IMG/VR virus record: IMGVR_UViG_3300005613_000033
Span: 19,132 to 83,131 of that record
Source: a virus
Taxonomy: Duplodnaviria; Heunggongvirae; Uroviricota; Caudoviricetes
Length of the DNA: 64,000 bases
Reading direction: 5' to 3' (one strand)
Made by a program: the position numbers and the translations under genes. The first letter of the stretch is position 1; each line of letters opens with the position of its first letter. Positions 1-63,746 of this stretch are shown piece after piece. The notes beneath the pieces are model-generated. The model was given only the letters and a program-made list of their open reading frames with translations. It did no database searches and was not told the origin of the DNA.

Positions 1-1214
1 TGATCCTGAAGAGGGTCAATGATACGCCAAGCTTGCTCGACTTCCTCGGCACTCGTGAAAAGACTCTGGTTGCCGTTGAACGCATCCATGAGTAAGGTCT
101 GGTACGCATCGGGAAAAGCGTCCCCATACTGGAACAACAGATTCTTGTCACCGACAGCGCCCCATCCAGGAACCTTAGCTGTAAAGTGTAGACGGATAGA
201 CTCGTCTGGCTGGAGCTTAATGACCAAGCGATTAGGTGTCGCGTTGTGGAAAATGCTATGGGGCACCTGTTTGAACTGAATCACAATCCGAGTGGTTCGC
301 TCCTTCAATTCTTTACCAGACCGCAAGTAAAACGGCACACCAGTCCACCGCCAATTGTTAATCGTAAGCTTTGCACAACTGAAGGTCGGATTCATAGAAC
401 CGGGATGTACCCCAGGCTCTTGCCGATACCCATCGTATTGACCTTGTAAAGAGTCCTTCAATTGAGGTGCATAAAGCGTCGGAATAGCCTTCAATAATTT
501 CAGTTTCTCGTCCCTAATGTCTTCTAGGCTGCTTGGGGCCTCCATTGCCACTAAAGTAAGCAGTTGAAGTAAGTGGTTTTGGAACATGTCTATCAAAACA
601 CCACTCTGATCGTAATAACCGGCCCGAGACCCGATCCCGCCTGTCTCAGCAGCGGTGATTTGCACATGATCTATATAGTCACGGGTCCAAATGGGTTCAA
701 AGATCGCGTTGGCGAATCGAAACACGAGAAGATTCTGTACAGTTTCTTTCCCCAGGTAGTGGTCGATCCGATAAAGCTGGTCCTCCCGAAAGTAGCGATG
801 AAGTTCTTTGTTCAACGCTTGTGCGGTTTCCAGGTTTGTGCCAAATGGTTTCTCGACAATCAATTTGCGTGGTACAATAGGATGCTTCACACCTTCCATT
901 ATACGGCTCGCTATGGGGCCGTAGAGGTCGGGGTTGACAGCGAGGTAGTAAACCTCACCATCGGGAATCATATCCTTAGTGGCGTCCCCAGGGCAGTAGG
1001 AAAGCAACTGAGAAAACTGTTGCCACTTAGCACCGAGGTCTTGACCTTGAGTAAGGTGTTCAATCCACTCTGCGTCTGTGAAGTTTGTACGGGATACACC
1101 AAAGATACGGATGTTTCCGAGTTTGTTGTTTAACCATAGGTTATACAATGCCGGAATCAATTTGCGGCGTGTTAAATCGCCCGATGCACCAAAGATAACA
1201 ATGTTTCTAGGCAT
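1..1214 (-). CDS. zwf: glucose-6-phosphate dehydrogenase, 3' partial (runs off window start)
   Basis: Hand translation of the minus strand from the ATG at 1214-1212 gives MPRNIVIFGASGDLTRRKLIPALYN (G6PD NADP-binding motif) and later RIDHYLGKE (G6PD active-site signature). The frame stays open to position 1, where the sequence ...EEVEQAWRIIDPLQD is still G6PD-like. Absent from the ORF track because there is no stop in the window. Confidence 0.85.
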   Translation of the reverse strand, partial: MPRNIVIFGASGDLTRRKLIPALYNLWLNNKLGNIRIFGVSRTNFTDAEWIEHLTQGQDLGAKWQQFSQLLSYCPGDATKDMIPDGEVYYLAVNPDLYGPIASRIMEGVKHPIVPRKLIVEKPFGTNLETAQALNKELHRYFREDQLYRIDHYLGKETVQNLLVFRFANAIFEPIWTRDYIDHVQITAAETGGIGSRAGYYDQSGVLIDMFQNHLLQLLTLVAMEAPSSLEDIRDEKLKLLKAIPTLYAPQLKDSLQGQYDGYRQEPGVHPGSMNPTFSCAKLTINNWRWTGVPFYLRSGKELKERTTRIVIQFKQVPHSIFHNATPNRLVIKLQPDESIRLHFTAKVPGWGAVGDKNLLFQYGDAFPDAYQTLLMDAFNGNQSLFTSAEEVEQAWRIIDPLQD

Positions 1215-1689
1215 ATAGCCGCCTTTTTTTCCATTCGATGTACCGTTTATGTGGTAAAACCGCAATATCGAGCGGAATTCCTTCTGCAATCCGGTATGCA
1301 AGGGTTCGATAGACAACTCCACAGCGAGGATCGTCAGCTATGTCTTTGATTCGTAAGTAATCGGTGCCCCAAACATTGTAGACCTTTACAGTCGTGGGGA
1401 CTTCACGTACCGCGTCATACAACGGTATGTCGTCGTACACACGGCGTCGAAGTTTCTCAAAGCTAACCTCACATCGCGCGTCGTTAGCGACATCTTTCAA
1501 GGTGGGATAAGTTTCGTCCCAGACTTGATACCATGAGATATCCGACGCGGTGCGCGCAGCGTCATGGGGCGACCACCCATAAATACGAATCCGTGTCCAG
1601 AGGGTTCGATATGAGACAGCGCAACGCGGGTCACCAGCAAGAGACTGGATTGACCTGTAATTTTGTCCAAAAGCTTGTACGCGGTTCAT
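1207..1689 (-). CDS. small DNA-binding protein with three tandem HTH (NUMOD1-like) repeats
   Basis: 160 aa. Three repeats of the form I/L-x-D/S-[LVI]-A-x-D-[PA]-R-C-x-V-[SV]-[YF]-[RE]-[TK]-L-x-x-R-[IV]. RBS GAGAGGAGC before the ATG at 1689. Its TAG stop (1209-1207) lies 5 nt inside zwf, whose ATG is at 1214. Confidence 0.55.
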   Translation of the reverse strand: MNRVQAFGQNYRSIQSLAGDPRCAVSYRTLWTRIRIYGWSPHDAARTASDISWYQVWDETYPTLKDVANDARCEVSFEKLRRRVYDDIPLYDAVREVPTTVKVYNVWGTDYLRIKDIADDPRCGVVYRTLAYRIAEGIPLDIAVLPHKRYIEWKKRRLYA

Positions 1690-1823
1690 AGGCTCCTCTC
1701 AAAGCTCTACTACAAGTATATCAGATAAAAGCTCAAAAGTCAAGGGATTCTTGGGGAATTTTGAAGAAAAAATGGCATTTTTGTCGGCTAGGACAATGTA
1801 AATCTGTATACAAATCTACCGAA

Positions 1824-1912
1824 GATTGCAATAAAAGTTGCAATCCATGTAGTTTTCCGAATTTTTTCTCGGTTTATAACGATTATTCCGATAGGAGTAT
1901 AAGAAGGAGAAA
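1824..1912 (+). promoter_or_regulatory. conserved upstream cassette copy A (core TTGCAATCCATGTAGTT at 1838-1854, with ...CCGATAGGAGTATAAGAAGGA)
   Basis: ~85 nt element repeated near 57241-57330, 57426-57442 and 57751-57823. It ends 5 nt before the ATG of the gene at 1917. Confidence 0.5.
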
Positions 1913-1916
1913 CTTT

Positions 1917-2456
1917 ATGGGTATACCGAGCCCCGAAAAACGCTGTCAACACGTCAATGACGACGCCCAATGCCCCCTCGAACGGGTAGAAGGGTCAATT
2001 TATTGCCACACTCACGATAGACATGCGCTCAAGCGTCTGGAAGACCAAAAGGTCCGCCAGTACCTCTTGACTGAAGCTCAATACTCGAATCGTCTGGCCG
2101 CCCTCTCGGACCACGACGACATCAAATCACTCCGCGAAGAAATCGCTTTTGCTCGAATGCTCGTCGAGAAGCGATTCAATATGATCCATGACGACGGGGA
2201 TTTGCTCGCGGCTTGCGGTACACTCAATACCCTACTCCTTACAGTCGAGCGTCTGGTAAAGTCCTGCAACCTAGTTGAACGAAATCTCGGCACCCTACTC
2301 TCAAAATCATCAGTCTTGAATCTGGGTCGAGATATCATCCATATCATCGTAGATGAACTCGAAGAGGTTGAAGATAAAGACGAAATTATTGATCGTATTG
2401 GTGACCGCATTATTGCCATCATCATAGAAGCCGGTAAGGACCAGAAGATAGAATAA
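1917..2456 (+). CDS. hypothetical early protein, Cys/His-rich N-terminus (possible zinc ribbon), acidic C-terminus
   Basis: ATG at 1917 preceded by AAGGAG. N-terminus CQHVNDDAQCPLERVEGSIYCHTHDRH. The longer ORF-track start at 1761 only translates the repeated promoter cassette. Confidence 0.55.
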   Translation: MGIPSPEKRCQHVNDDAQCPLERVEGSIYCHTHDRHALKRLEDQKVRQYLLTEAQYSNRLAALSDHDDIKSLREEIAFARMLVEKRFNMIHDDGDLLAACGTLNTLLLTVERLVKSCNLVERNLGTLLSKSSVLNLGRDIIHIIVDELEEVEDKDEIIDRIGDRIIAIIIEAGKDQKIE

Positions 2457-5065: not shown

Positions 5066-8000
5066 ATGTTAAGGCGGGATTTTTTGAAATGGGGATTGGG
5101 TACCACGGCTGGCCTTTCAATGGGCTCGGGCCTTTGGATACCCCCCTGGTTGCAAGCAGCGGATGATACAATTCCAACAGCCGTGCAGGGCGGGTGGATT
5201 GATGACCCCATTATACGAGACCGTTGGGTAAGAACGCAAATAAAACCATATCTAACACAACAAAATAAACAAATCCTCAATACTGGAAAAGGTAAACTTG
5301 TTTGCCTTTGGAAGTATTTTGAGGAAGTGACTGAGTCCCCTCTAGTTCCACACCTTCAAGAAATTGGCGATTGTAAGCAAGCTGGAACCTTGGTTACTAT
5401 GGCAGATGGTAATCGCAAAGAAATTGAACGAATCAAAGTTGGAGAATATGTTTTAAGTCATCTAGGACGACCCCAACGGGTTACTAGAACTATACGTAAA
5501 CCGTTTAAGAAAAGCATGATTCGATTTCAAGCTAAAGGAACTTTTGAAGATGTTGTTTGTACCCCTGACCATCTGATTTTTGTGGGTGGGGGGAAATGGA
5601 AACCAGCAGGGGAGCTTAGTCTCGACGACCATGTCTTTATTCAAAGTTATCGAGGTTCTACAATAAGCAAAACATACGATCTCCTTGATATATGTCCCGA
5701 TGCTGAAATTAGAGACAATAAACTACGAGCCAAACAGAGTTCAAAATGGGTAAATCGTTTTGTACATCTGGATGACCGACTTGCTTATGTTATTGGAGCG
5801 TATCTTGCAGAAGGTGGTTGTAGTAGAGCCCAGGGACCTGAATGGAAGCCTGGTCAATGGTGTAAAGTTGATTTTAACTTAGGACATACTGAAGAAAAAT
5901 TTGCTAATACAATCGCAACTCTTATGCAACAAATCTTTGGTATCGAGTGCCAGGTATATTCAGTACCAAGTAAACCAACTGTAAAGTATGTAAGATGCCA
6001 AAACAAAGCGGTCGCCATGTTTTTCAAGCATCTTATACCAGGTAATACTTATACTAAGGAAGTACCTAAGGATATTCTAGTAGCGTCTAAAGAAATTCAA
6101 CTCAAATGTTTATTTGGATGGTTAGAAGGCGATGGCAGTTGCCCCGGCCGAAAACAATGTAAATCCTTAAAGAAACGTGGTCCATGTTGTTCTGGTACCA
6201 GTGTATCGCGTGAACTTGTTACAGGTATGTTTCGACTTGCTAATACTTGTGGTTTTAATCCAACCATGTCGTTTATAAAAGTTCAAGGGGAGCGGGCTCA
6301 AGCTCAAACTCTTTATTTGGGGGTCGCTGACACAGCCAAATTGTATCCAGGAATATCGAATAAAGTTTATACATACCCTGAAGCTAATCCATATGGATTA
6401 AAACGTAAACTACAATCTGTTTCAACTATCTCAAGAGTAGCTACAACTGTATATTGTATTGATGTTGAAGAAGATCATTCCTTTATAGCCAATGGTTACA
6501 GTGTACATAATTGTGTTAGCCATGCTTTTGGACTAGGTGTGGACATTTTAACCGCAGTTCAGATGCTCATGCTTGGTAAGCCTGAGCGTTGGATTGCTAA
6601 AGCTGCTACTGAGATCATTTATGCCGGTAGTCGCCACGAAGTTGGCGGCGGTAGGATCAAGTACAGTGATGGTTCTATGGGAACTTGGGCCGCAGATTTC
6701 ATCTCACAATGGGGCGTATTACAACGCAAGCGATATCTTGGTGGGCAATACGACTACACAGAATATTCAGGACGGGTAGCTCGCGAACTCGGCAAAAAGG
6801 GAGTCCCCGACCCCTTGGAGCCGCTTTGCAGATTACACCCGGTAAAGACCGTTTCGATCTGTAGGTCATGGAATGAATGCCGCGATGCGATAGCAAACGG
6901 ACACCTCGTTTGCATGTGTAGCAATGTGGGATTCAAGACCCGAGGAGGACGAGATAAAGATGGATTCTTGGCCCCGAGCAGACGACCCTGGATGCACGCG
7001 ATGCTTATCGCAGGTGTGGATGATGCTTTTAAGCGCCCAGGCGGTCTTATAATTAATAGTTGGGGTTGCTTTGATGAACAAACCGAAATTCTTACAGACG
7101 AAGGATGGAAGCTGTTCAAAGACTTAAATGAATCTGAAAAAATAGCTACTTTGAATCAAGAAACACATGAACTTGAATATCAAACCCCCACCTGCTACCA
7201 TCGGTATCCATACAATAGTTATTTATGGCATCATAAATCCAGAGATATAGATTTGGCTATTACACCTAATCATAATTTATATGTGGCTAAACGTGATAAG
7301 CCAGAGAACTGGTTTTTAACTCGGGCTGATGAGTGCCTTCAAACTATTAAAATGAAAAAGGATGCTAATAATTCACGACCCGACAAAGAGATTCATCAAG
7401 TAGGTGATGCTAAAATTCCAATGGACTTGTGGTTAGAATTTCTTGGTTACTTTTTATCCGAAGGGTATACTAGTAAAAATCAATCATATCACCAAGGTGC
7501 AAAAAATGGGATACAGAGAATAGTAGGTATTTGTCAAACTAATCAAGTTAACTACAAGATCATTCGTGCTTGCTTGGACCAATTACCTTTTGATTTTAAT
7601 TCCCATGCCAAATTATTTCTAAATCACACAAGCAAGGATTTACTCACAGAATTACTACCTTTTGGTAAAGCCCATGAAAAATATATCCCTGATTATGTTT
7701 GGGAATGTTCTGCCCGCCAATTGAAAATATTGTATGATGCTTTGATGCTAGGGGATGGATCCATTAGTCAAGGTGATACAGGAATAAAACGAACTTATTA
7801 CACTTCGTCCAAGCAATTGGCTGATGATTTTCAACGTTTACTATTGCATTGTGGTTTCGCTGGTGACATTTCGTATACAGATCGGCGAGGACGTGATAAC
7901 GGAACAGGCGGAATTACTCGACATATTGAGTATCGAATAGGCATTAAGATAAAAGCACTAGAGCAAAATATAACTTACAAACCTATTTTATTACCTTATC

Positions 8001-8239
8001 GAGGTGAAGTATTCTGTGTGACCGTTCCGAATCAAGTTATCTATGTACGTAGAAACGGGCGTGCAGTTTGGGCTGGTAATTCTAACTGGGTTTACGGCCC
8101 AAAACGACACGGGCAACCAGAGGGTTCCTTCTGGGCAGATGCTAGTGTCATTGATCGTGGTTTGAGACAAGGGGACAGTATAGCAATGAGTGCTTACCTT
8201 GGATATCCACGTCTTGATCTGGATTATCGTTTTTGGTAA
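5066..8239 (+). CDS. Tat-signal papain-like (C1-type) cysteine peptidase precursor interrupted by two inteins
   Basis: N-terminus MLRRDFLKWGLGTTAGLSMGSG is a twin-arginine signal (RRxFLK). Extein motifs: QEIGD-[intein1]-CVSHAFG (Gln then Cys, oxyanion/catalytic arrangement) and HAMLIAGVDD...GGLIINSWG-[intein2]-SNW (His and Asn-Ser-Trp-Gly of C1 peptidases). The spliced product would be about 339 aa. Confidence 0.7.
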   Translation: MLRRDFLKWGLGTTAGLSMGSGLWIPPWLQAADDTIPTAVQGGWIDDPIIRDRWVRTQIKPYLTQQNKQILNTGKGKLVCLWKYFEEVTESPLVPHLQEIGDCKQAGTLVTMADGNRKEIERIKVGEYVLSHLGRPQRVTRTIRKPFKKSMIRFQAKGTFEDVVCTPDHLIFVGGGKWKPAGELSLDDHVFIQSYRGSTISKTYDLLDICPDAEIRDNKLRAKQSSKWVNRFVHLDDRLAYVIGAYLAEGGCSRAQGPEWKPGQWCKVDFNLGHTEEKFANTIATLMQQIFGIECQVYSVPSKPTVKYVRCQNKAVAMFFKHLIPGNTYTKEVPKDILVASKEIQLKCLFGWLEGDGSCPGRKQCKSLKKRGPCCSGTSVSRELVTGMFRLANTCGFNPTMSFIKVQGERAQAQTLYLGVADTAKLYPGISNKVYTYPEANPYGLKRKLQSVSTISRVATTVYCIDVEEDHSFIANGYSVHNCVSHAFGLGVDILTAVQMLMLGKPERWIAKAATEIIYAGSRHEVGGGRIKYSDGSMGTWAADFISQWGVLQRKRYLGGQYDYTEYSGRVARELGKKGVPDPLEPLCRLHPVKTVSICRSWNECRDAIANGHLVCMCSNVGFKTRGGRDKDGFLAPSRRPWMHAMLIAGVDDAFKRPGGLIINSWGCFDEQTEILTDEGWKLFKDLNESEKIATLNQETHELEYQTPTCYHRYPYNSYLWHHKSRDIDLAITPNHNLYVAKRDKPENWFLTRADECLQTIKMKKDANNSRPDKEIHQVGDAKIPMDLWLEFLGYFLSEGYTSKNQSYHQGAKNGIQRIVGICQTNQVNYKIIRACLDQLPFDFNSHAKLFLNHTSKDLLTELLPFGKAHEKYIPDYVWECSARQLKILYDALMLGDGSISQGDTGIKRTYYTSSKQLADDFQRLLLHCGFAGDISYTDRRGRDNGTGGITRHIEYRIGIKIKALEQNITYKPILLPYRGEVFCVTVPNQVIYVRRNGRAVWAGNSNWVYGPKRHGQPEGSFWADASVIDRGLRQGDSIAMSAYLGYPRLDLDYRFW
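5372..6511 (+). mobile_element. intein 1 (380 aa) with LAGLIDADG homing endonuclease
   Basis: Block A CKQAGTLVTMADG, block B TPDHLIF, LAGLIDADG motifs LAYVIGAYLAEGG and LFGWLEGDGS, block F VYCIDVEEDHSFIANG, block G SVHN followed by +1 Cys. In frame with the host ORF. Confidence 0.85.
7067..8080 (+). mobile_element. intein 2 (338 aa) with LAGLIDADG homing endonuclease
   Basis: Block A CFDEQTEILTDEG, block B ITPNHNLYV, LAGLIDADG motifs LGYFLSEGY and LYDALMLGDGS, block F VFCVTVPNQVIYVRRNG. Ends ...WAGN (penultimate Gly, not His) with +1 Ser, so the C-terminal boundary is less certain than for intein 1. Confidence 0.7.
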
Positions 8240-14120: not shown

Positions 14121-14822
14121 ATGGCTATTCCCGTTAATGTTGTAGAAGGGACAATCGAAACTGTCGTTGAAGTGGGAAATATCGAAAATATAACCCAAGT
14201 TAACGAAGTTGTCAACGTCCAAGAGGTTGCAAATGTAGCTAACGTAGCTGAGGTTGCTAACGTAGCTGAGGTTGCTAACGTAGCTAACGTAGCTGAAGTT
14301 GCTAATGTAGCTGAAGTTGCTAACGTAGCTGAGGTTGCTAACGTAGCTGAGGTTGCTAACGTAGCTAACGTAGCTGAAGTTGCTAATGTAGCTGAAGTTG
14401 CTAATGTAGCTAACGTAGCTGAGGTTGCTAACGTAGCTGAGGTTGCTAACGTAGCTGAGGTTGCTAACGTAGCTGAGGTTGCTAATGTAGCTGAAGTTGC
14501 TAACGTTGAGAGTGTAGCGGCATTGGTTAAGGAAACGACAGCATTTACCACTGTTGTGACAGCTAATTCCGAGACAGCTAACACAGCCAAGCAGTTACAT
14601 GCCGATACAGCCGCGAACAAGTTCGTGATGGTTCGGTCGCGTGACGATAACAGCACTACTAACCCATTGTGGGTTGGTAAGTCCACAGTTGATGCCCAAA
14701 ACAGTGCTAATGGTTATCCGTTGGACGCTGGTGAAAGTATCACTCTTCCAGTTGAGAACGCTAACGAAGTGTATGTAGACTCGGTCTCTGCGAATCAGAA
14801 TTATACATACGTCGTAGTCTAA
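14121..14822 (+). CDS. structural protein with ~32 tandem Val-Ala-Asn / Val-Ala-Glu tripeptide repeats (9-nt codon period, 18-nt DNA unit)
   Basis: Protein (VANVAE)n region across residues 35-130. RBS TAGGAG. The C-terminal ~100 aa is non-repetitive. Confidence 0.55.
   Translation: MAIPVNVVEGTIETVVEVGNIENITQVNEVVNVQEVANVANVAEVANVAEVANVANVAEVANVAEVANVAEVANVAEVANVANVAEVANVAEVANVANVAEVANVAEVANVAEVANVAEVANVAEVANVESVAALVKETTAFTTVVTANSETANTAKQLHADTAANKFVMVRSRDDNSTTNPLWVGKSTVDAQNSANGYPLDAGESITLPVENANEVYVDSVSANQNYTYVVV
14226..14513 (+). repeat. in-frame tandem DNA repeat, unit GTAGCTGAGGTTGCTAAC (18 bp, ~16 copies with synonymous variants)
   Basis: Read directly. The antisense ORF 13922-14686 (TSATLA repeats) is its mirror and is not coding. 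Confidence 0.85.
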
Positions 14823-15550: not shown

Positions 15551-15589
15551 CCCGACAGTCGGGGGATGTTCCCGACTGTCGGATCTTTT
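15551..15589 (+). terminator. rho-independent terminator
   Basis: CCCGACAGTCGGG..CCCGACTGTCGG stem followed by ATCTTTT. Confidence 0.6.
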
Positions 15590-40716: not shown

Positions 40717-40761
40717 AGTTGGTTAGGGAAGCCCTTGTAGGGCTTCCCGGCCAACTCTTTT
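40717..40761. terminator. bidirectional hairpin terminator between convergent genes
   Basis: GGGAAGCCC-TTGTA-GGGCTTCCC with outer GTTGG/CCAAC pairing and a T-run on the plus side. Lies between the 40158 gene (+) and the HNH gene (-). Confidence 0.55.
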
Positions 40762-41278
40762 AGTCTATATATTCCCAACCATAACCACCTGTTGTTTTAC
40801 GACGCCCATTACAAACATTCCAGATGTTACTATGCGGGCATCCAGTTTCTTCTGCCGCAATACTCATGTTAATAAATTCAACACCATCTGATCTTCTAAC
40901 AGATCGACCACCATGTGTACCATCTCGACGTTTATCAAAACCATCTTCACTTTTTGTCCCATAACAGAGATTAGAAACTGAATTATCTGATATTCCATTA
41001 GGACCATGTCGAATTACACACCCCTCAAAAGGGCCAATTAACCAAGCATTAGCGACAAGATGATGAACATAATGAGTTTTCTTAATACCTTCTTTTGATA
41101 ATCTTAATACAAGATAACCACTTGTGGCTGCGGGTATAAGCTTTAGAATTTTACCCCTCCAATTACGGAATCCACCTTTAGAGTGGCGAATAATCCGATC
41201 AACTGACCTGACACGACCTAAGTTGCTAACTTCGTAATAACCCTCATAATTAACAACATCTTTCCATTGTTCGTCCAT
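40760..41278 (-). CDS. HNH homing endonuclease (NUMOD4 N-terminus + HNH_3)
   Basis: N-terminus MDEQWKDVVNYEGYYEVSNLGRVRS (NUMOD4-like). HHLVANAWL...RHGPNG...DNSVSNL (HNH). Paralogue of 56637-57206. Opposite strand, inside the tail operon. Confidence 0.85.
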   Translation of the reverse strand: MDEQWKDVVNYEGYYEVSNLGRVRSVDRIIRHSKGGFRNWRGKILKLIPAATSGYLVLRLSKEGIKKTHYVHHLVANAWLIGPFEGCVIRHGPNGISDNSVSNLCYGTKSEDGFDKRRDGTHGGRSVRRSDGVEFINMSIAAEETGCPHSNIWNVCNGRRKTTGGYGWEYID

Positions 41279-51731: not shown

Positions 51732-51759
51732 CTGCTTATTCAAAGCAGTTTGGCTTTTT
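51732..51759. terminator. terminator hairpin between convergent blocks
   Basis: CTGCTT-ATTCA-AAGCAG followed by TTTGGCTTTTT, with A-rich flank on the other side. Confidence 0.55.
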
Positions 51760-56636: not shown

Positions 56637-57206
56637 CTACTTCTCTTCATTAACATACTCCCATCCATAACCACCCCCAGTGTGTTGTCGTCCATTACAA
56701 GTACCCCAGATACTTTGAACTTGACAACCTGTTTCTTTGGCCGCAAGAGTCATATTGATAAATTCAACACCATCGCTACGTCTAACATGTCTGCCATTAT
56801 AGGTACCATCCCTACGCCTATCAAGTTGGTCTTGACTTTTAGTACCATAACAAAGGTTAGATATAGAATTGTCCAATTTACCATTAGACCCATGGCGAAC
56901 TTGCTGACCATCGGGGCACGGACCAATCCACGCCGCTGCTACAAGCCTATGAACCGTAAAAGTTCTTCGTGTACCTCTTTTGTACAAATTCACTGAGAGA
57001 TGCCCATAAATATTGTTAGGTATAGCTGACAAGATTAAATCTTTTCGCCTATACTTCCTTCCACCTATCGAACGAACGCGACCGAGATTGGAGACAGCAT
57101 AATAGTCTTCATACCCAGGAATATCTCGCCATCGTTCATCTAGGTCCATATTTAAGCGGGCGACAACTTCAATGTCTTGCCAGATTTCTTCTTGAATTGT
57201 GTCCAT
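56637..57206 (-). CDS. HNH homing endonuclease (paralogue of 40760-41278)
   Basis: RWRDIPGYEDYYAVSNLGRVRS (NUMOD4-like). C-terminal half is near-identical to the other copy (RHGSNGKLDNSISNLCYGTKSQD...RRSDGVEFINM...GGYGWEYV). Confidence 0.85.
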   Translation of the reverse strand: MDTIQEEIWQDIEVVARLNMDLDERWRDIPGYEDYYAVSNLGRVRSIGGRKYRRKDLILSAIPNNIYGHLSVNLYKRGTRRTFTVHRLVAAAWIGPCPDGQQVRHGSNGKLDNSISNLCYGTKSQDQLDRRRDGTYNGRHVRRSDGVEFINMTLAAKETGCQVQSIWGTCNGRQHTGGGYGWEYVNEEK

Positions 57207-57240
57207 AATAGTCTCATGCTGGTTATGTCCCGGCGCACCG

Positions 57241-57330
57241 ACCGGTCCTTCTTATACTCCTATCGGAAATATCGTCTCTAATCGAGAGAAAATTCCACGA
57301 ACTACATGGATTGCAACAAAAGTGGCAATC
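57241..57330 (-). promoter_or_regulatory. conserved upstream cassette copy C (core at 57300-57316 on minus strand, plus CCGATAGGAGTATAAGAAGGA)
   Basis: Reverse-complement of the copy A/B consensus. A GC hairpin (CCGGTCGGTGCGCCGGG) lies between it and the HNH ATG. Confidence 0.5.
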
Positions 57331-57425
57331 TTCTACAATTGAATCAAAATGATGACACTTTTTGATGAATTGAATCATTGAAAAATAACTCAAAATTCGC
57401 TGAATTTTTTCTGAGAAATTCCGAA

Positions 57426-57442
57426 AACTACATGGATTGCAA
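57426..57442 (-). promoter_or_regulatory. conserved core copy D (TTGCAATCCATGTAGTT on minus strand, followed by TTCGGAATTT)
   Basis: In tandem with copy C on the minus strand. Confidence 0.4.
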
Positions 57443-57750
57443 GAATAGTTGCATCGGCGTTGTAGCCCGCCCGAAACTGTAGTCAAATTGACTACACTGA
57501 ATGATTCGCGAAATCGGCGATTTTAGTTAGTTTTGAATCAGGTGCTAACTCGTTTTTAACTCGCCCAAACCTCTTGTTTTCTCGACTCAAAGTGGTTTTG
57601 TAGTTAGGAAGTTAGTGTTATTTTTTTCAAGAGATAAATTCTCAAAGCTATTATTTAGTAAAAAATAGTCTATATATAATAAGGGTTTGGGACAGTGTAA
57701 CTAACTAATTCACTCGACATTCCCTCACCGGAGGGGTAGTGCGCCGGATT

Positions 57751-57823
57751 TGTTGCAATCCATGTAGTTCTCCGAATTTTTTCTCGATTTAAGCCGTTTT
57801 TTCCGATAGGAGTATAAGAAGGA
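57751..57823 (+). promoter_or_regulatory. conserved upstream cassette copy B (core 57753-57769)
   Basis: Matches copy A across ~70 nt through AAGAAGGA. Ends 7 nt before the ATG of 57831. Confidence 0.5.
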
Positions 57824-57830
57824 CAGTGAT

Positions 57831-58781
57831 ATGCACGACGAAGTCAAGAACATCCCGATTCAGGATATCGTTGAACCAACGATTCTAATGAGGCTTGTGG
57901 ACACAGGTTCACTTGACTACTTGGAGATGTATTACTCAATGCAAGATGTTGGGTTTTTGAATTCAGTCAGCGTGCGGCCGTCAAAGAAGACCCCTGGCAA
58001 GTATGAACTTATAGACGGGTTATGGCGGTATACGGTGGCCCGGCATCTCAAGCTAGAGATGGTGCCCTGTATTGTTAAGAATATAGACGAAGACACGGAC
58101 GTATTATTCCTTCAGATTGCAGCAAACGCCATACGGCCTGTTACGAAGCCCTGTGAGTACGCAGAACATCTGGATAGAATACTGAAGTCAGATCCAGAGA
58201 TGACGCTGGTGACGCTTGCAGGCCGCTTAAAGAAGGAATTACTGTGGATTCGAGAAACCCTGAATCTGAATCGGCTTTTGCCGGTGATAAAGAAAAGTGT
58301 CAACCGGGGTGAAATACCGGTAAAATCGGCACGACTGTTATCCAAGATTCCACAGTCTTGGCAGGAACAATTCTTTTCACAAGCTAAGTTGTTGACATAC
58401 CAGGACTTCTCGCCGTTAGCGAGACGGGCAATCAAGGATTTCAAGGAGGCCAAACGTCAAGGAACGATGAAGCGGTTTTATGAAACCCAGTATACACCGC
58501 ATCCTTATCTTAGAACAATGCGAGATTTAGTAAATGAGATGGAGCATTGTGAGGAAGGTGCCATGTATTTGGTTAATGAGGATTGGACACCTATTGAAGC
58601 ATGGCAAAAAGCCGTACAATGGTGTCTACACATGGACCCAAAAGGGGTAAAGGAACAGACGAGACGTTACGCAGGGATGCTGGACAAGCCTAAAATTGAT
58701 GCAAAAAGGAGACGAATCGATAGACGAAAGTTGCAAGAGTTAGAAAATTGTGGATTTGATTTGACAAACCAAGAAAAGTAA
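57831..58781 (+). CDS. ParB N-terminal-domain (ParB/Srx-like) protein
   Basis: NIPIQDIVEPT...YELIDGLWRYTVARHL is a ParB-like box (DGxxR). 316 aa. Confidence 0.55.
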   Translation: MHDEVKNIPIQDIVEPTILMRLVDTGSLDYLEMYYSMQDVGFLNSVSVRPSKKTPGKYELIDGLWRYTVARHLKLEMVPCIVKNIDEDTDVLFLQIAANAIRPVTKPCEYAEHLDRILKSDPEMTLVTLAGRLKKELLWIRETLNLNRLLPVIKKSVNRGEIPVKSARLLSKIPQSWQEQFFSQAKLLTYQDFSPLARRAIKDFKEAKRQGTMKRFYETQYTPHPYLRTMRDLVNEMEHCEEGAMYLVNEDWTPIEAWQKAVQWCLHMDPKGVKEQTRRYAGMLDKPKIDAKRRRIDRRKLQELENCGFDLTNQEK

Positions 58782-60596: not shown

Positions 60597-60630
60597 GAGG
60601 AACTGGTTTAATCGCCAGTTCCTCTCTTTT
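60597..60630 (+). terminator. rho-independent terminator
   Basis: GAGGAACTGG-TTTAATCG-CCAGTTCCTC followed by TCTTTTCC. Confidence 0.65.
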
Positions 60631-60638
60631 CCATATAG

Positions 60639-60711
60639 AGTGGGATAGAGCAGTGGTTAGCTCGGCGGCCTCATAAGTCGCAGGTCGAGGGTTCAAATCC
60701 CTCTCCCACCA
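60639..60711 (+). tRNA. tRNA with CAU anticodon (Met or Ile2-type)
   Basis: Hand-folded cloverleaf: D arm GAGC/AGUGGUUA/GCUC, anticodon loop CUCAUAA, T arm GAGGG/UUCAAAU/CCCUC. No encoded CCA. 1:72 apparently unpaired, so the boundaries are approximate. Confidence 0.65.
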
Positions 60712-60722
60712 TTTCGATTTAT

Positions 60723-60795
60723 AGCGGGGTGGAGCAGTGGTTAGCTTGTCGGTCTCATACGCCGAAGGTCGGAGGTTCAAATCCTTCCCCCGCAA
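60723..60795 (+). tRNA. second tRNA with CAU anticodon
   Basis: Anticodon arm UCGGU/CUCAUAC/GCCGA, T loop UUCAAAU. Boundaries approximate. Confidence 0.6.
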
Positions 60796-60845
60796 CTTAT
60801 CGTGTCCATGTTAAGCTAGTCCTGACGCAGAGGAGAAGGAATAAG

Positions 60846-62049: not shown

Positions 62050-62541
62050 ATGGAATCCATGAATAAGTTGATCTTAACTATTGGTCTACCACGTAGTGGA
62101 AAGTCAACTTGGGCCCTGAAGCAAGGTTGTCCTATTGTTGCGTCCGATGCTCTGCGGCTTTCGATTTTTGGGAAATTGTGGTGGCCACCGGGTGAGCAGC
62201 AAATTATGGTAACTGCGCGTTCCATGGTACGAGCCCTATTCTTTGCAGGTCATGACACTGTAATCTTTGACTCCATCAGTCTGACAAGGGAAGCTCGACA
62301 GTTTTGGCTTCCTACTTCTGATTGTTCTTGGATCTTAGAATACATGGTCATACAAACGCCAGAGGCGGTCTGCATTGAACGAGCCATATCTAATGACCAA
62401 GAATACTTGGTTCCAGTAATTCAGCATGGGGCTGAGATACTCGGCGATCATATTATGCTTGAGAACTTCACTGACCAAACAAAGGATGAATGGAATGAGG
62501 AAGATTTCATAGGGTGTAGACATAAGAAAGGTGATAGATGA
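62050..62541 (+). CDS. P-loop kinase resembling the T4 polynucleotide kinase (Pnk) kinase domain
   Basis: KLILTIGLPRSGKSTWA resembles the T4 Pnk N-terminus KIILTIGCPGSGKSTWA. Walker B VIFDSISL. No phosphatase domain. Alternative start at 62059. Confidence 0.55.
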   Translation: MESMNKLILTIGLPRSGKSTWALKQGCPIVASDALRLSIFGKLWWPPGEQQIMVTARSMVRALFFAGHDTVIFDSISLTREARQFWLPTSDCSWILEYMVIQTPEAVCIERAISNDQEYLVPVIQHGAEILGDHIMLENFTDQTKDEWNEEDFIGCRHKKGDR

Positions 62542-62885
62542 GTAGCAAAGCTAAAGTAGTTGAAAAACCCATAGTGGAAGTGGAGGAATCAGAAGGATTC
62601 GATATTGGTGATAAAAAATGGTCCGACCCAACAGCCCACCAGGCTGTAAGTCGCAACGCTGAAGTAGTCGAAAAACAAATAACGGGAGTGGAGGAATCAG
62701 AAGTGTTAGGTATTGGTAAGAAGAAATGGTCCGATACAATAGCCCTCCAGGCTGTAAGTGCATCATATGAGATTTTGAAAGTTGGTGGTGATCTATCCCC
62801 TGAAGACATTATGGGGATGACGGTGCAAAAGTTACTGGAAATGGTAACACCTAACAAACTACGTTTGAAGTTGGAGAAAATCTAA
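62538..62885 (+). CDS. hypothetical protein with internal ~35-aa duplication
   Basis: AKVVEKPIVEVEESEGFDIGDKKWSDPTAHQAVS and AEVVEKQITGVEESEVLGIGKKKWSDTIALQAVS. Matching ~100-bp DNA direct repeat. ATGA overlap. Confidence 0.45.
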   Translation: MSSKAKVVEKPIVEVEESEGFDIGDKKWSDPTAHQAVSRNAEVVEKQITGVEESEVLGIGKKKWSDTIALQAVSASYEILKVGGDLSPEDIMGMTVQKLLEMVTPNKLRLKLEKI

Positions 62886-63670: not shown

Positions 63671-63746
63671 GCCGGTGTAACTCAATTGGTAGAGTACCAG
63701 TTTTGTAAATTGGATGTTAAGGGTTCAAGTCCCTTCACCGGCTCCA
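63671..63746 (+). tRNA. tRNA-Thr (UGU), CCA encoded
   Basis: Perfect 7-bp acceptor stem GCCGGUG/CACCGGC. D arm ACUC/AAUUGGUA/GAGU. Anticodon arm CCAGU/UUUGUAA/AUUGG. T arm AAGGG/UUCAAGU/CCCUU. Discriminator U then CCA. Confidence 0.7.

Follow-up and report, generated by a model that had tools for sequence, protein, structure and literature searches.

A short cassette that stands at the head of three long transcription units in a tailed-phage genome segment was found to combine a promoter-like half with a strongly conserved leader. We consider it about an even bet (probability roughly 0.5) that these cassettes are the promoters and leaders of the three units, activated by a co-evolving DNA-binding factor that the phage itself encodes, with the protein gp160 as the candidate. 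The window that was analyzed is a single stretch of 64,000 nucleotides (~43% G+C) and is part of a genome that is possibly ~100 kb in size. It encodes a GpA-type large terminase (TerL), a tape-measure protein, a primase/helicase (DUF5906) and a ParB-like protein, as well as two NUMOD4/HNH endonucleases, an intein-bearing protein and three tRNAs. Searches of cultured phages detected nothing related at the DNA level and, with the primase and TerL as protein queries, only matches of 31% identity or less. What appears to be new is a family of phage-specific promoters whose leader is unusually conserved, from a lineage that is uncultured; the category itself is familiar.

Copies and anatomy of the cassette

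By exact search, the 17-mer TTGCAATCCATGTAGTT was located at four sites in the window (Table 1), at the positions and on the strands reported by a sequence-only reading of this DNA. When up to 3 mismatches were allowed, nothing beyond these four exact copies was detected in the 64-kb window (0.23 expected from shuffles), and the nearest non-copy sequences differed from the 17-mer at 4 or more positions. A profile search of the 64 kb likewise gave no cassette beyond copies A to D, and the search for further copies that had been proposed thus added none within the window. The 21-mer CCGATAGGAGTATAAGAAGGA had three exact matches (0.00 expected) and begins 50 nt past the start of the 17-mer, which is 33 nt past its end; the block earlier described as following the core in three copies is therefore identical in all three as claimed, with its distance of about 45 nt corrected to these values. 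Alignment of the copies resolved three full cassettes of ~78 nt (A, D and B) and one truncated copy (C). Thus, the interval 1824-1912, earlier presented as an ~85-nt cassette occurring four times, is a fair frame for a unit of ~78 nt (1833-1910) whose fourth copy is incomplete. Copy C shares just the first ~28-30 nt with the full copies; it lies 126 nt upstream of copy B and reads across iteron-like repeats. Among copies A, B and D, 10 to 17 differences per pair were found, with none inside the 38 block positions (P = 2.5e-4, 1e-6 and 5.8e-4 for the three full-copy pairs). Since all inter-copy differences avoid the two blocks, the conservation is block-wise and not simply that of a recent duplication.

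Table 1. Cassette copies, transcription units and associated features of the window.
Feature	Position	Strand	Description
Copy A, full cassette	1833-1910	+	Exact searches and alignment; nhmmer E=7e-15
Copy A, 17-mer core	1838-1854	+	-35-like TTGCAA (1838-1843) and spacer nt 1-11
Copy A, -10-like hexamer	1860-1865	+	AATTTT, 16 nt beyond the first hexamer
Copy A, leader block (21-mer)	1888-1908	+	CGATAGGA at 1889-1896
Copy D, full cassette	57748-57825	+	17-mer 57753-57769, AATTTT 57775-57780, 21-mer 57803-57823
Copy B, full cassette	57244-57321	-	17-mer 57316-57300, AATTTT 57294-57289, 21-mer 57266-57246
Copy C, truncated	57415-57442	-	Alignment positions 18-45 only: first hexamer, spacer and AATTTC; 17-mer 57442-57426
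Central control region between cassettes	57443-57747		Palindrome, AT-rich tract, GC hairpin
Unit A	ATG 1917 to terminator 51732-51748	+	~50 kb; terminase, portal, tape measure
Unit B	57206 to 51807, terminator 51537-51511	-	HNH gene first
Unit D	From ATG 57831	+	ParB-like first gene; Band_7, tRNAs, VWA and kinase-like genes
Unit E	From 1689	-	gp160, then G6PD running off the window edge
Canonical sigma70-type promoter	1715-1743	-	TTGACT-N17-TATACT with TG extension; divergent from cassette A
gp160	1207-1689	-	Three tandem ~48-aa beta-beta-alpha-alpha-alpha, HTH-like modules

The anatomy of the cassette was defined from 23 distinct copies, contributed by seven or more related uncultured phage lineages and alignable with hardly a gap; alignment position 1 corresponds to window position 1821. 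Positions 18-23 form a -35-like hexamer that reads TTGCAA in the W type (copy A), TTTCAT in the X and Y types, and CTAGAA or TTAGAA in the Z type. A 16-nt spacer separates this hexamer from a weak -10-like element, NAATTT, at positions 40-45, and falls in the 16-18 bp range of sigma70-type promoters. All 11 Z-type copies, and also W-type copy B (at 57297-57296, on the minus strand), carry the optional TG one base upstream of the -10-like element (positions 37-38); this extension occurs in the lineages with the poorest first hexamer. The 17-mer of copy A makes up most of the lineage-specific block (positions 18-39), and the ATG-TAG start-stop within it is not kept in other lineages. The -10-like element is followed by a T-rich stretch with TCG at its end, 15 variable nt of fixed length, CGATAGGA and a short lineage-typical tail, which in copies A and D leads into the Shine-Dalgarno sequence. 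The positions invariant in the 23 copies are T19, T24, A41-T43, T47, T49-G51, T54 and C69-A76.

Compared to the sigma70 consensus, the W-type hexamers match at 4/6 (TTGCAA) and 3/6 positions (AATTTT, with A2 and T6 present), a total of ~7/12, and a consensus promoter scan with a threshold of 9/12 left the cassettes uncalled. For this reason the cassette looks factor-dependent, and the family is probably delayed; the label 'early' given to it by the sequence-only reading is probably wrong, as perfect host-type sigma70 promoters belong instead to a separate leftward operon. Transcription would start near position 52, that is at ~1872(+) (1871-1873), ~57787(+) and ~57282(-); this start site is uncertain because an alternative -10 may lie at positions 19-24 (TAGAAT in Z types). 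Sequences of the form TATAAG, TATAAT or TAAAAT after CGATAGGA were rejected as the real -10: T6 is absent in the W, Y and Z types, no -35 accompanies them, and a -10 at this place would also strip the conserved Shine-Dalgarno sequence from the mRNA. Bacteroidota-type -33/-7 motifs were found to be absent from the cassette.

In the leader half, the 8-nt CGATAGGA is invariant in 23 of 23 copies from at least seven lineages and is thus constant across lineages whose ParB proteins are only 54-75% identical. In two of the copies, B and E (the latter in a relative described below), no start codon adjoins this block. Positions 44-52 pair imperfectly with 68-76 in a 9-bp inverted repeat of 15-nt spacing (the left arm of copy A is at 1864-1872), in which 88% of cells are paired compared to 40-58% when the partner is slid, with U-G/C-G alternation tolerated at column pair 47/75. 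Covariation in this repeat was limited to one compensatory cell, no better than shuffles, because its arms barely vary. The RNAalifold consensus fold reached only -2.1 kcal/mol. In Rfam searches only tRNAs attained the gathering score, and the interval 57100-57900 gave nothing relevant at E <= 5. The CGATAGGA block probably acts in transcription, perhaps as a second protein site or an early-transcript element.

Related phages and exchange of the lineage-specific block

The sequence-only reading had suggested scanning other phages for the 17-mer. In IMG/VR the exact 17-mer had five matches, all without flanking similarity and therefore attributed to chance; what related phages have in common is the downstream half of the cassette, not the 17-mer. 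Related contigs were reached via homologues of the 179-aa protein encoded behind cassette A, of ParB and of gp160, and an 18-base pattern of invariant positions then recovered further copies from metagenomes. When the same pattern was run against 185,579 representative bacterial and archaeal genomes, no cassette and seven chance matches were detected. One candidate relative, L008, was rejected; its primase is 46% identical, but its organization is different and the cassette is absent.

A common layout was found in at least seven lineages, with one cassette ahead of the 179-aa gene and a divergent pair ahead of the primase block and ParB. Some lineages carry extra copies aimed into the iteron/AT-rich center, for a total of three to four copies per genome. 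Core-only copies like C occur in two relatives (L018 at 9544(-) and L023 at ~2072(-)), and the truncated copies of the three lineages keep exactly positions 18-45, a piece the size of a promoter. In L018, copy E is a full cassette with no gene behind it. Based on the truncated copies and this gene-less copy, the cassette unit is not tied to a start codon.

The two halves of the cassette were found to differ in how they vary. The 22-nt block of hexamer plus spacer is alike at 18-22 of its 22 positions within a genome and at 6-14 of 22 between lineages. By contrast, the 15-nt loop is mostly alike at only 4-13 of 15 positions when different sites of one genome are compared; copies E and A of L018 are an outlier (core 12/22, loop 14/15). 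Orthologous sites show the converse: copy A of the W and X types agrees at 15/15 loop positions and 11/22 core positions, and copy D of the W and Y types at 13/15 and 6/22, respectively. By these comparisons, all copies of a genome have exchanged the 22-nt block in concert, and its flanks have descended vertically. The element is thus phage-specific, as had been proposed, in the sense that its upstream block changes together within each genome while the flanks are conserved by position. Whole-cassette gene conversion cannot yield such a pattern, which suggests co-evolution with a trans-acting reader encoded by the phage; the earlier idea of a phage-encoded factor is strengthened to the extent that the block behaves as would be expected of its site. 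No D-side protein was found whose divergence tracks the core type (L019 like L016 and unlike L022).

Transcription units, central control region and gp160

The genes of the window fall into four units, with A and D rightward and B and E leftward (Table 1). Units A, B and D are each headed by one full cassette in the correct orientation, and the head of unit E has a canonical promoter in place of the cassette; terminator-like hairpins mark the ends of units A and B. In the window and in all relatives, the cassettes lie upstream of, and face, the first gene of long units. Here, these genes start at ATG 1917, ATG 57831 and ATG 57206 (the last encoding a NUMOD4/HNH_3 protein), with orientations as the sequence-only reading had given them. 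Its view that this is conserved non-coding DNA and not a gene remnant is supported; the copies stand in the proper orientation at the heads of three large units, and ORFs 1761-2456 (TTG start), 1788-1970(-) and 57223-57486(-) are, as it supposed, spurious translations over the element. The first gene of unit A (1917-2456) encodes the 179-aa Zn-ribbon/helical protein and has the Shine-Dalgarno sequence AAGGAG after cassette A; a profile of this protein searched against the PDB was uninformative. In unit B, the cassette is followed by a GC hairpin, the HNH gene (ATG 57206), and genes for the primase/helicase, a dGTP diphosphohydrolase-like protein and an exonuclease.

Several other features of these units were recorded. 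Strong hairpins resembling intrinsic terminators occur on the coding strand within unit A at 15552-15582(+) (14 pairs, preceding a 2502-aa gene) and within unit D at 60597-60624(+) (11 pairs, preceding a tRNA pair), so that transcription of the genes downstream would call for read-through or additional promoters. The tRNAs are a tandem tRNA-Met (CAT) pair, 79% identical, and a tRNA-Thr (TGT), at 60639-60796 and 63671-63746 on the plus strand. ORF 5066-8239(+), of 1057 aa, is a function-unassigned protein of ~338 aa split by intein (Hint) and LAGLIDADG sequences; versions of 338 aa (L012), 676 aa (L010) and 1057 aa indicate that intein content varies between close strains. In the head module, a stretch of ~31 overlapping copies with a 9-nt period (14142-14555(+), inside ORF 14121-14822) encodes a three-residue protein repeat, and a 108-nt tandem duplication of 81% identity lies at 62541-62756(+) within ORF 62538-62885. 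The NUMOD4/HNH homing-endonuclease gene at 56637-57206(-) and ORF 40760-41278(-), its inferred paralog, share 74% nt identity over 175 nt; the latter interrupts the rightward structural unit. The G6PD gene (zwf, 1-1207(-)) runs off the left end of the window, and its antisense strand accounts for the artefactual ORFs 19-279, 246-449 and 573-1133 on the plus strand. Relatives carry IMPDH, epimerase, thioredoxin, ThyX, RNR and dCMP deaminase, a metabolic load that resembles that of cyanophages.

Between the divergent cassettes, a palindrome (TGTAGTCAAATTGACTACA) is located at 57478-57496 and an AT-rich tract at 57619-57680, and related iterons of the TCAAATTGA type are found at 57330-57375, between copies C and B and thus outside the central region as delimited in Table 1. 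Palindrome, iterons and AT-rich tract lie near the ParB and primase genes and are kept in all relatives; together they are probably a replication origin and/or a centromere (parS). A GC-rich hairpin with a conserved GCGCCG(G/T/A) was observed at 57722-57750, upstream of copy D, where its GCGCCGG motif adjoins the copy, and at 57243-57222, downstream of copy B. The hairpin directly precedes each D copy and directly follows each B copy, including those of relatives L016, L018, L019, L022 and L023.

The canonical promoter divergent from cassette A is predicted to drive gp160 and G6PD. Its hexamers are kept in four lineages (TTGACA/TATAAT in L013) and its spacer varies freely, which is the opposite of what was found for the cassettes. 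In Z-type relatives a second perfect promoter (TTGACA-N17-TATAAT or TATACT) stands in tandem at the leftward early operon adjoining cassette A (minus strand, ~5400-5460 in L013 and ~5470-5520 in L006), and the HNH gene that follows cassette B in X-type relatives has a canonical TTGACT-N17-TATACT promoter to itself.

The gp160 gene is the first behind the canonical promoter and is always divergent from cassette A. Its product evolves faster than that of the neighboring gene (62/48/47% compared to 88/71/70% identity), and its modules share the motif (W/F)G-x-x-(F/Y)-x-(S/T)-(I/L)-x-x-(I/L/V)-A-x-D-x-R-C-x-V. In an AlphaFold2 model (pLDDT 91), each module consists of a beta-hairpin and three helices. 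The closest small-domain structural matches of this model, all weak, were DNA binders: 8b6e (sCTP-23166), 1u3e (I-HmuI) and MerR. The HTH module of sCTP binds DNA (PMC10319021). More than 300 uncharacterized proteins, with up to 18 repeats each, belong to the module family. No Pfam or PDB sequence match to the gp160 module was obtained in the scans run, and Pfam scans of the module-containing proteins gave spurious or weak matches only, one of them a weak match to GIY-YIG. When gp160 and the cassette site were compared between lineages, every lineage pair was found to differ in both protein and site; in the additional genome L071, the core type is the same as in L009 and gp160 is similar. Pfam and PHROG searches of ~30 window proteins detected no sigma factor, RNA polymerase or classical regulator. 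Taken together, sequence and structural model make gp160 a candidate reader of the cassette; the true factor may lie outside the window, which covers only part of the genome.

Proposed mechanism and alternative explanations

Promoter activity, start site, activation rather than repression and the role of gp160 as reader are what we infer from sequence, in the following scheme. Positions 18-45 would form a weak promoter of sigma70 shape, followed by a leader that carries CGATAGGA and, in copies A and D, the ribosome-binding site. The first hexamer and spacer would be the recognition site of a sequence-specific DNA-binding protein of the phage. Most likely, the host-type promoter at 1743-1715(-) fires first and a phage protein then activates the weak cassette promoters; gp160, as the triple-HTH-like first product of the early operon, would be the best candidate for this activator. 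Through cassettes A, B and D, the structural, replication and ParB/nucleotide blocks would be turned on jointly, and truncated copy C would direct transcripts through the iteron/origin region.

Activator-dependent promoter sets are known from phages Mu (C at Plys, PI, PP and Pmom), P2/P4 (Ogr/delta, late) and T4 (MotA box, middle). Each such set consists of few promoters with a host-type -10 geometry, in which a shared phage-specific site overlies or takes the place of a poor -35; the promoters precede the main delayed blocks and require a protein expressed earlier from a host-type promoter. The cassettes are like these sets in having a phage-specific site shared between promoters at a poor -35, ahead of what would be delayed blocks. 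They differ in that the site is asymmetric and covers both hexamer and spacer, that the -10-like NAATTT is unusually weak, that each full copy is accompanied by a conserved ~40-nt leader with the invariant CGATAGGA, for which those sets offer no parallel, and that a single cassette is used for both replication and structural blocks. No homologue of C, Mor, Ogr or MotA/AsiA was detected.

The same lineage-specific block could instead be an immunity determinant, the operator for a phage repressor superimposed on promoters that would otherwise function, in a temperate phage (perhaps a plasmid prophage that uses ParB) in which one repressor silences all three lytic units; we regard this as unlikely. 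A site that is asymmetric and non-palindromic, identical within a genome and different between related phages has the pattern of immunity specificity, and the ParB-like gene and the iteron and palindrome repeats would suit such a lifestyle. The C1 operators of P1 are asymmetric repressor sites in multiple copies, by which one repressor silences several lytic units. Similarly, the stoperators of Cluster A mycobacteriophages are asymmetric 13-bp sites with phage-specific motifs (PMC6550527, PMC9283540). The cassette block resembles both in its oriented, non-palindromic sites of 13-17 bp that are uniform in a genome and differ between phages, and in being read, as proposed here, by a protein with more than one DNA-binding module. 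Those systems, however, contain 17-30 sites, a good number of which lie within units, and work in lysogens through repression or roadblock, whereas only three to four sites are present here, all at promoters and none inside transcription units. In addition, the promoters look intrinsically weak, which fits activation better than repression; neither an integrase nor a repressor-like protein or repressor homologue was detected in the window, itself part of the genome; and the 185,579 representative genomes, with no cassette, gave no sign of prophages or lysogeny. Quite doubtful, too, is the explanation that the cassette acts mainly as an RNA leader from an upstream start, with the hairpin of positions 44-52/68-76 and CGATAGGA loading an antitermination or processivity factor (nut/put/Q-like) or controlling translation and the phage-specific part serving a phage-specific partner as its RNA or DNA site. 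In favor of it, the inverted repeat is genuine, CGATAGGA does not vary between lineages, the block is found in copies B and E away from any adjacent start, and the two internal hairpins lie in cassette-headed units where read-through is needed. Against this weigh the lack of covariation, the marginal fold, the missing Rfam match, the hairpin-less truncated copies that three lineages conserve, and the finding that no cassette-oriented promoter-like site was flagged upstream of copy A; a loop of fixed length and free sequence is a better fit to DNA spacing. Lambdoid Q sites and nut/put sites offer the parallel of a phage-specific element at the promoter with a conserved element in the first ~25 transcribed nt, likewise ahead of very long operons with internal terminators, but typically number one or two per genome compared to three to four here, and neither a Q or N homologue nor a put/nut-like Rfam match was found in our case. 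As a long shot, the cassette might be a two-part loading site for a novel type of phage transcription factor: a tandem-HTH protein of the gp160 family would read the block and stay with, or modify, RNA polymerase at CGATAGGA, within the first 25 transcribed bases, as a Q-like antitermination switch unrelated to Q that is used at every major operon and lets transcription of the 50-kb operons resist the internal terminators at 15552 and 60597.

It is very unlikely that the copies are alike through recombination rather than function, as PeSL-like recombination points or through recent duplication or gene conversion. Copies are near-identical within a genome, and an HNH homing-endonuclease gene lies directly behind copy B in three lineages (the Z types are an exception). 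A precedent is found in T4-like phages, where promoter-early stem-loop (PeSL) cassettes, units of terminator and early promoter, are scattered in hyperplastic regions and mark breakpoints of indels and shuffling (PMC2839356, PMC4122927). Both elements are short composites of promoter and inverted repeat that are repeated and near-identical. Unlike PeSLs, the cassettes occupy the same three orthologous operon heads in every lineage and do not border variable genes; their blocks and the intervening sequence evolve independently, and the cassettes have no consensus early promoter, T-run terminator or terminator-like stem. Furthermore, the differences between copies avoid both blocks completely (P down to 1e-6), the 15-nt loop stays orthologous by position while the 22-nt block is replaced in every copy, and it is implausible for conversion tracts to leave out the middle of a 78-nt cassette. 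We consider it highly improbable that the cassettes are promoters read by the phage's own RNA polymerase (T7-like or of another kind) or its own sigma factor. A phage-specific block, a conserved A/T-rich stretch and a conserved downstream sequence would be compatible with such an enzyme, and CGATAGGA loosely resembles the T7 initiation region. A T7-like reading of CGATAGGA was rejected, as the upstream positions that this enzyme would read are the variable loop; the contiguous ~23-bp conservation of a T7-like promoter (-17 to +6) is not seen, the blocks being split by 15 variable nt. No RNA polymerase or sigma domain was detected in the tested window proteins or the Pfam-annotated neighbors in relatives, just three to four sites exist per genome, and two hexamers at 16 nt with a TG are the geometry of host sigma70.

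For phages of this lineage, the signature ATT-N3-T-N-TCG-N17-CGATAGGA could serve to find and orient operons in metagenomes, and the analysis also flags the gp160 family as an uncharacterized family of tandem DNA-binding-like modules. The seven or more lineage-specific recognition blocks set in a conserved frame are a natural specificity-swap series, which could supply orthogonal pairs of promoter and regulator. If the activator scheme is true, one short cassette and one small phage protein would control almost the whole gene program, spanning replication, nucleotide metabolism and virion genes, in a widespread, uncultured lineage whose phages carry host-like metabolic genes (for example G6PD, IMPDH and thioredoxin).
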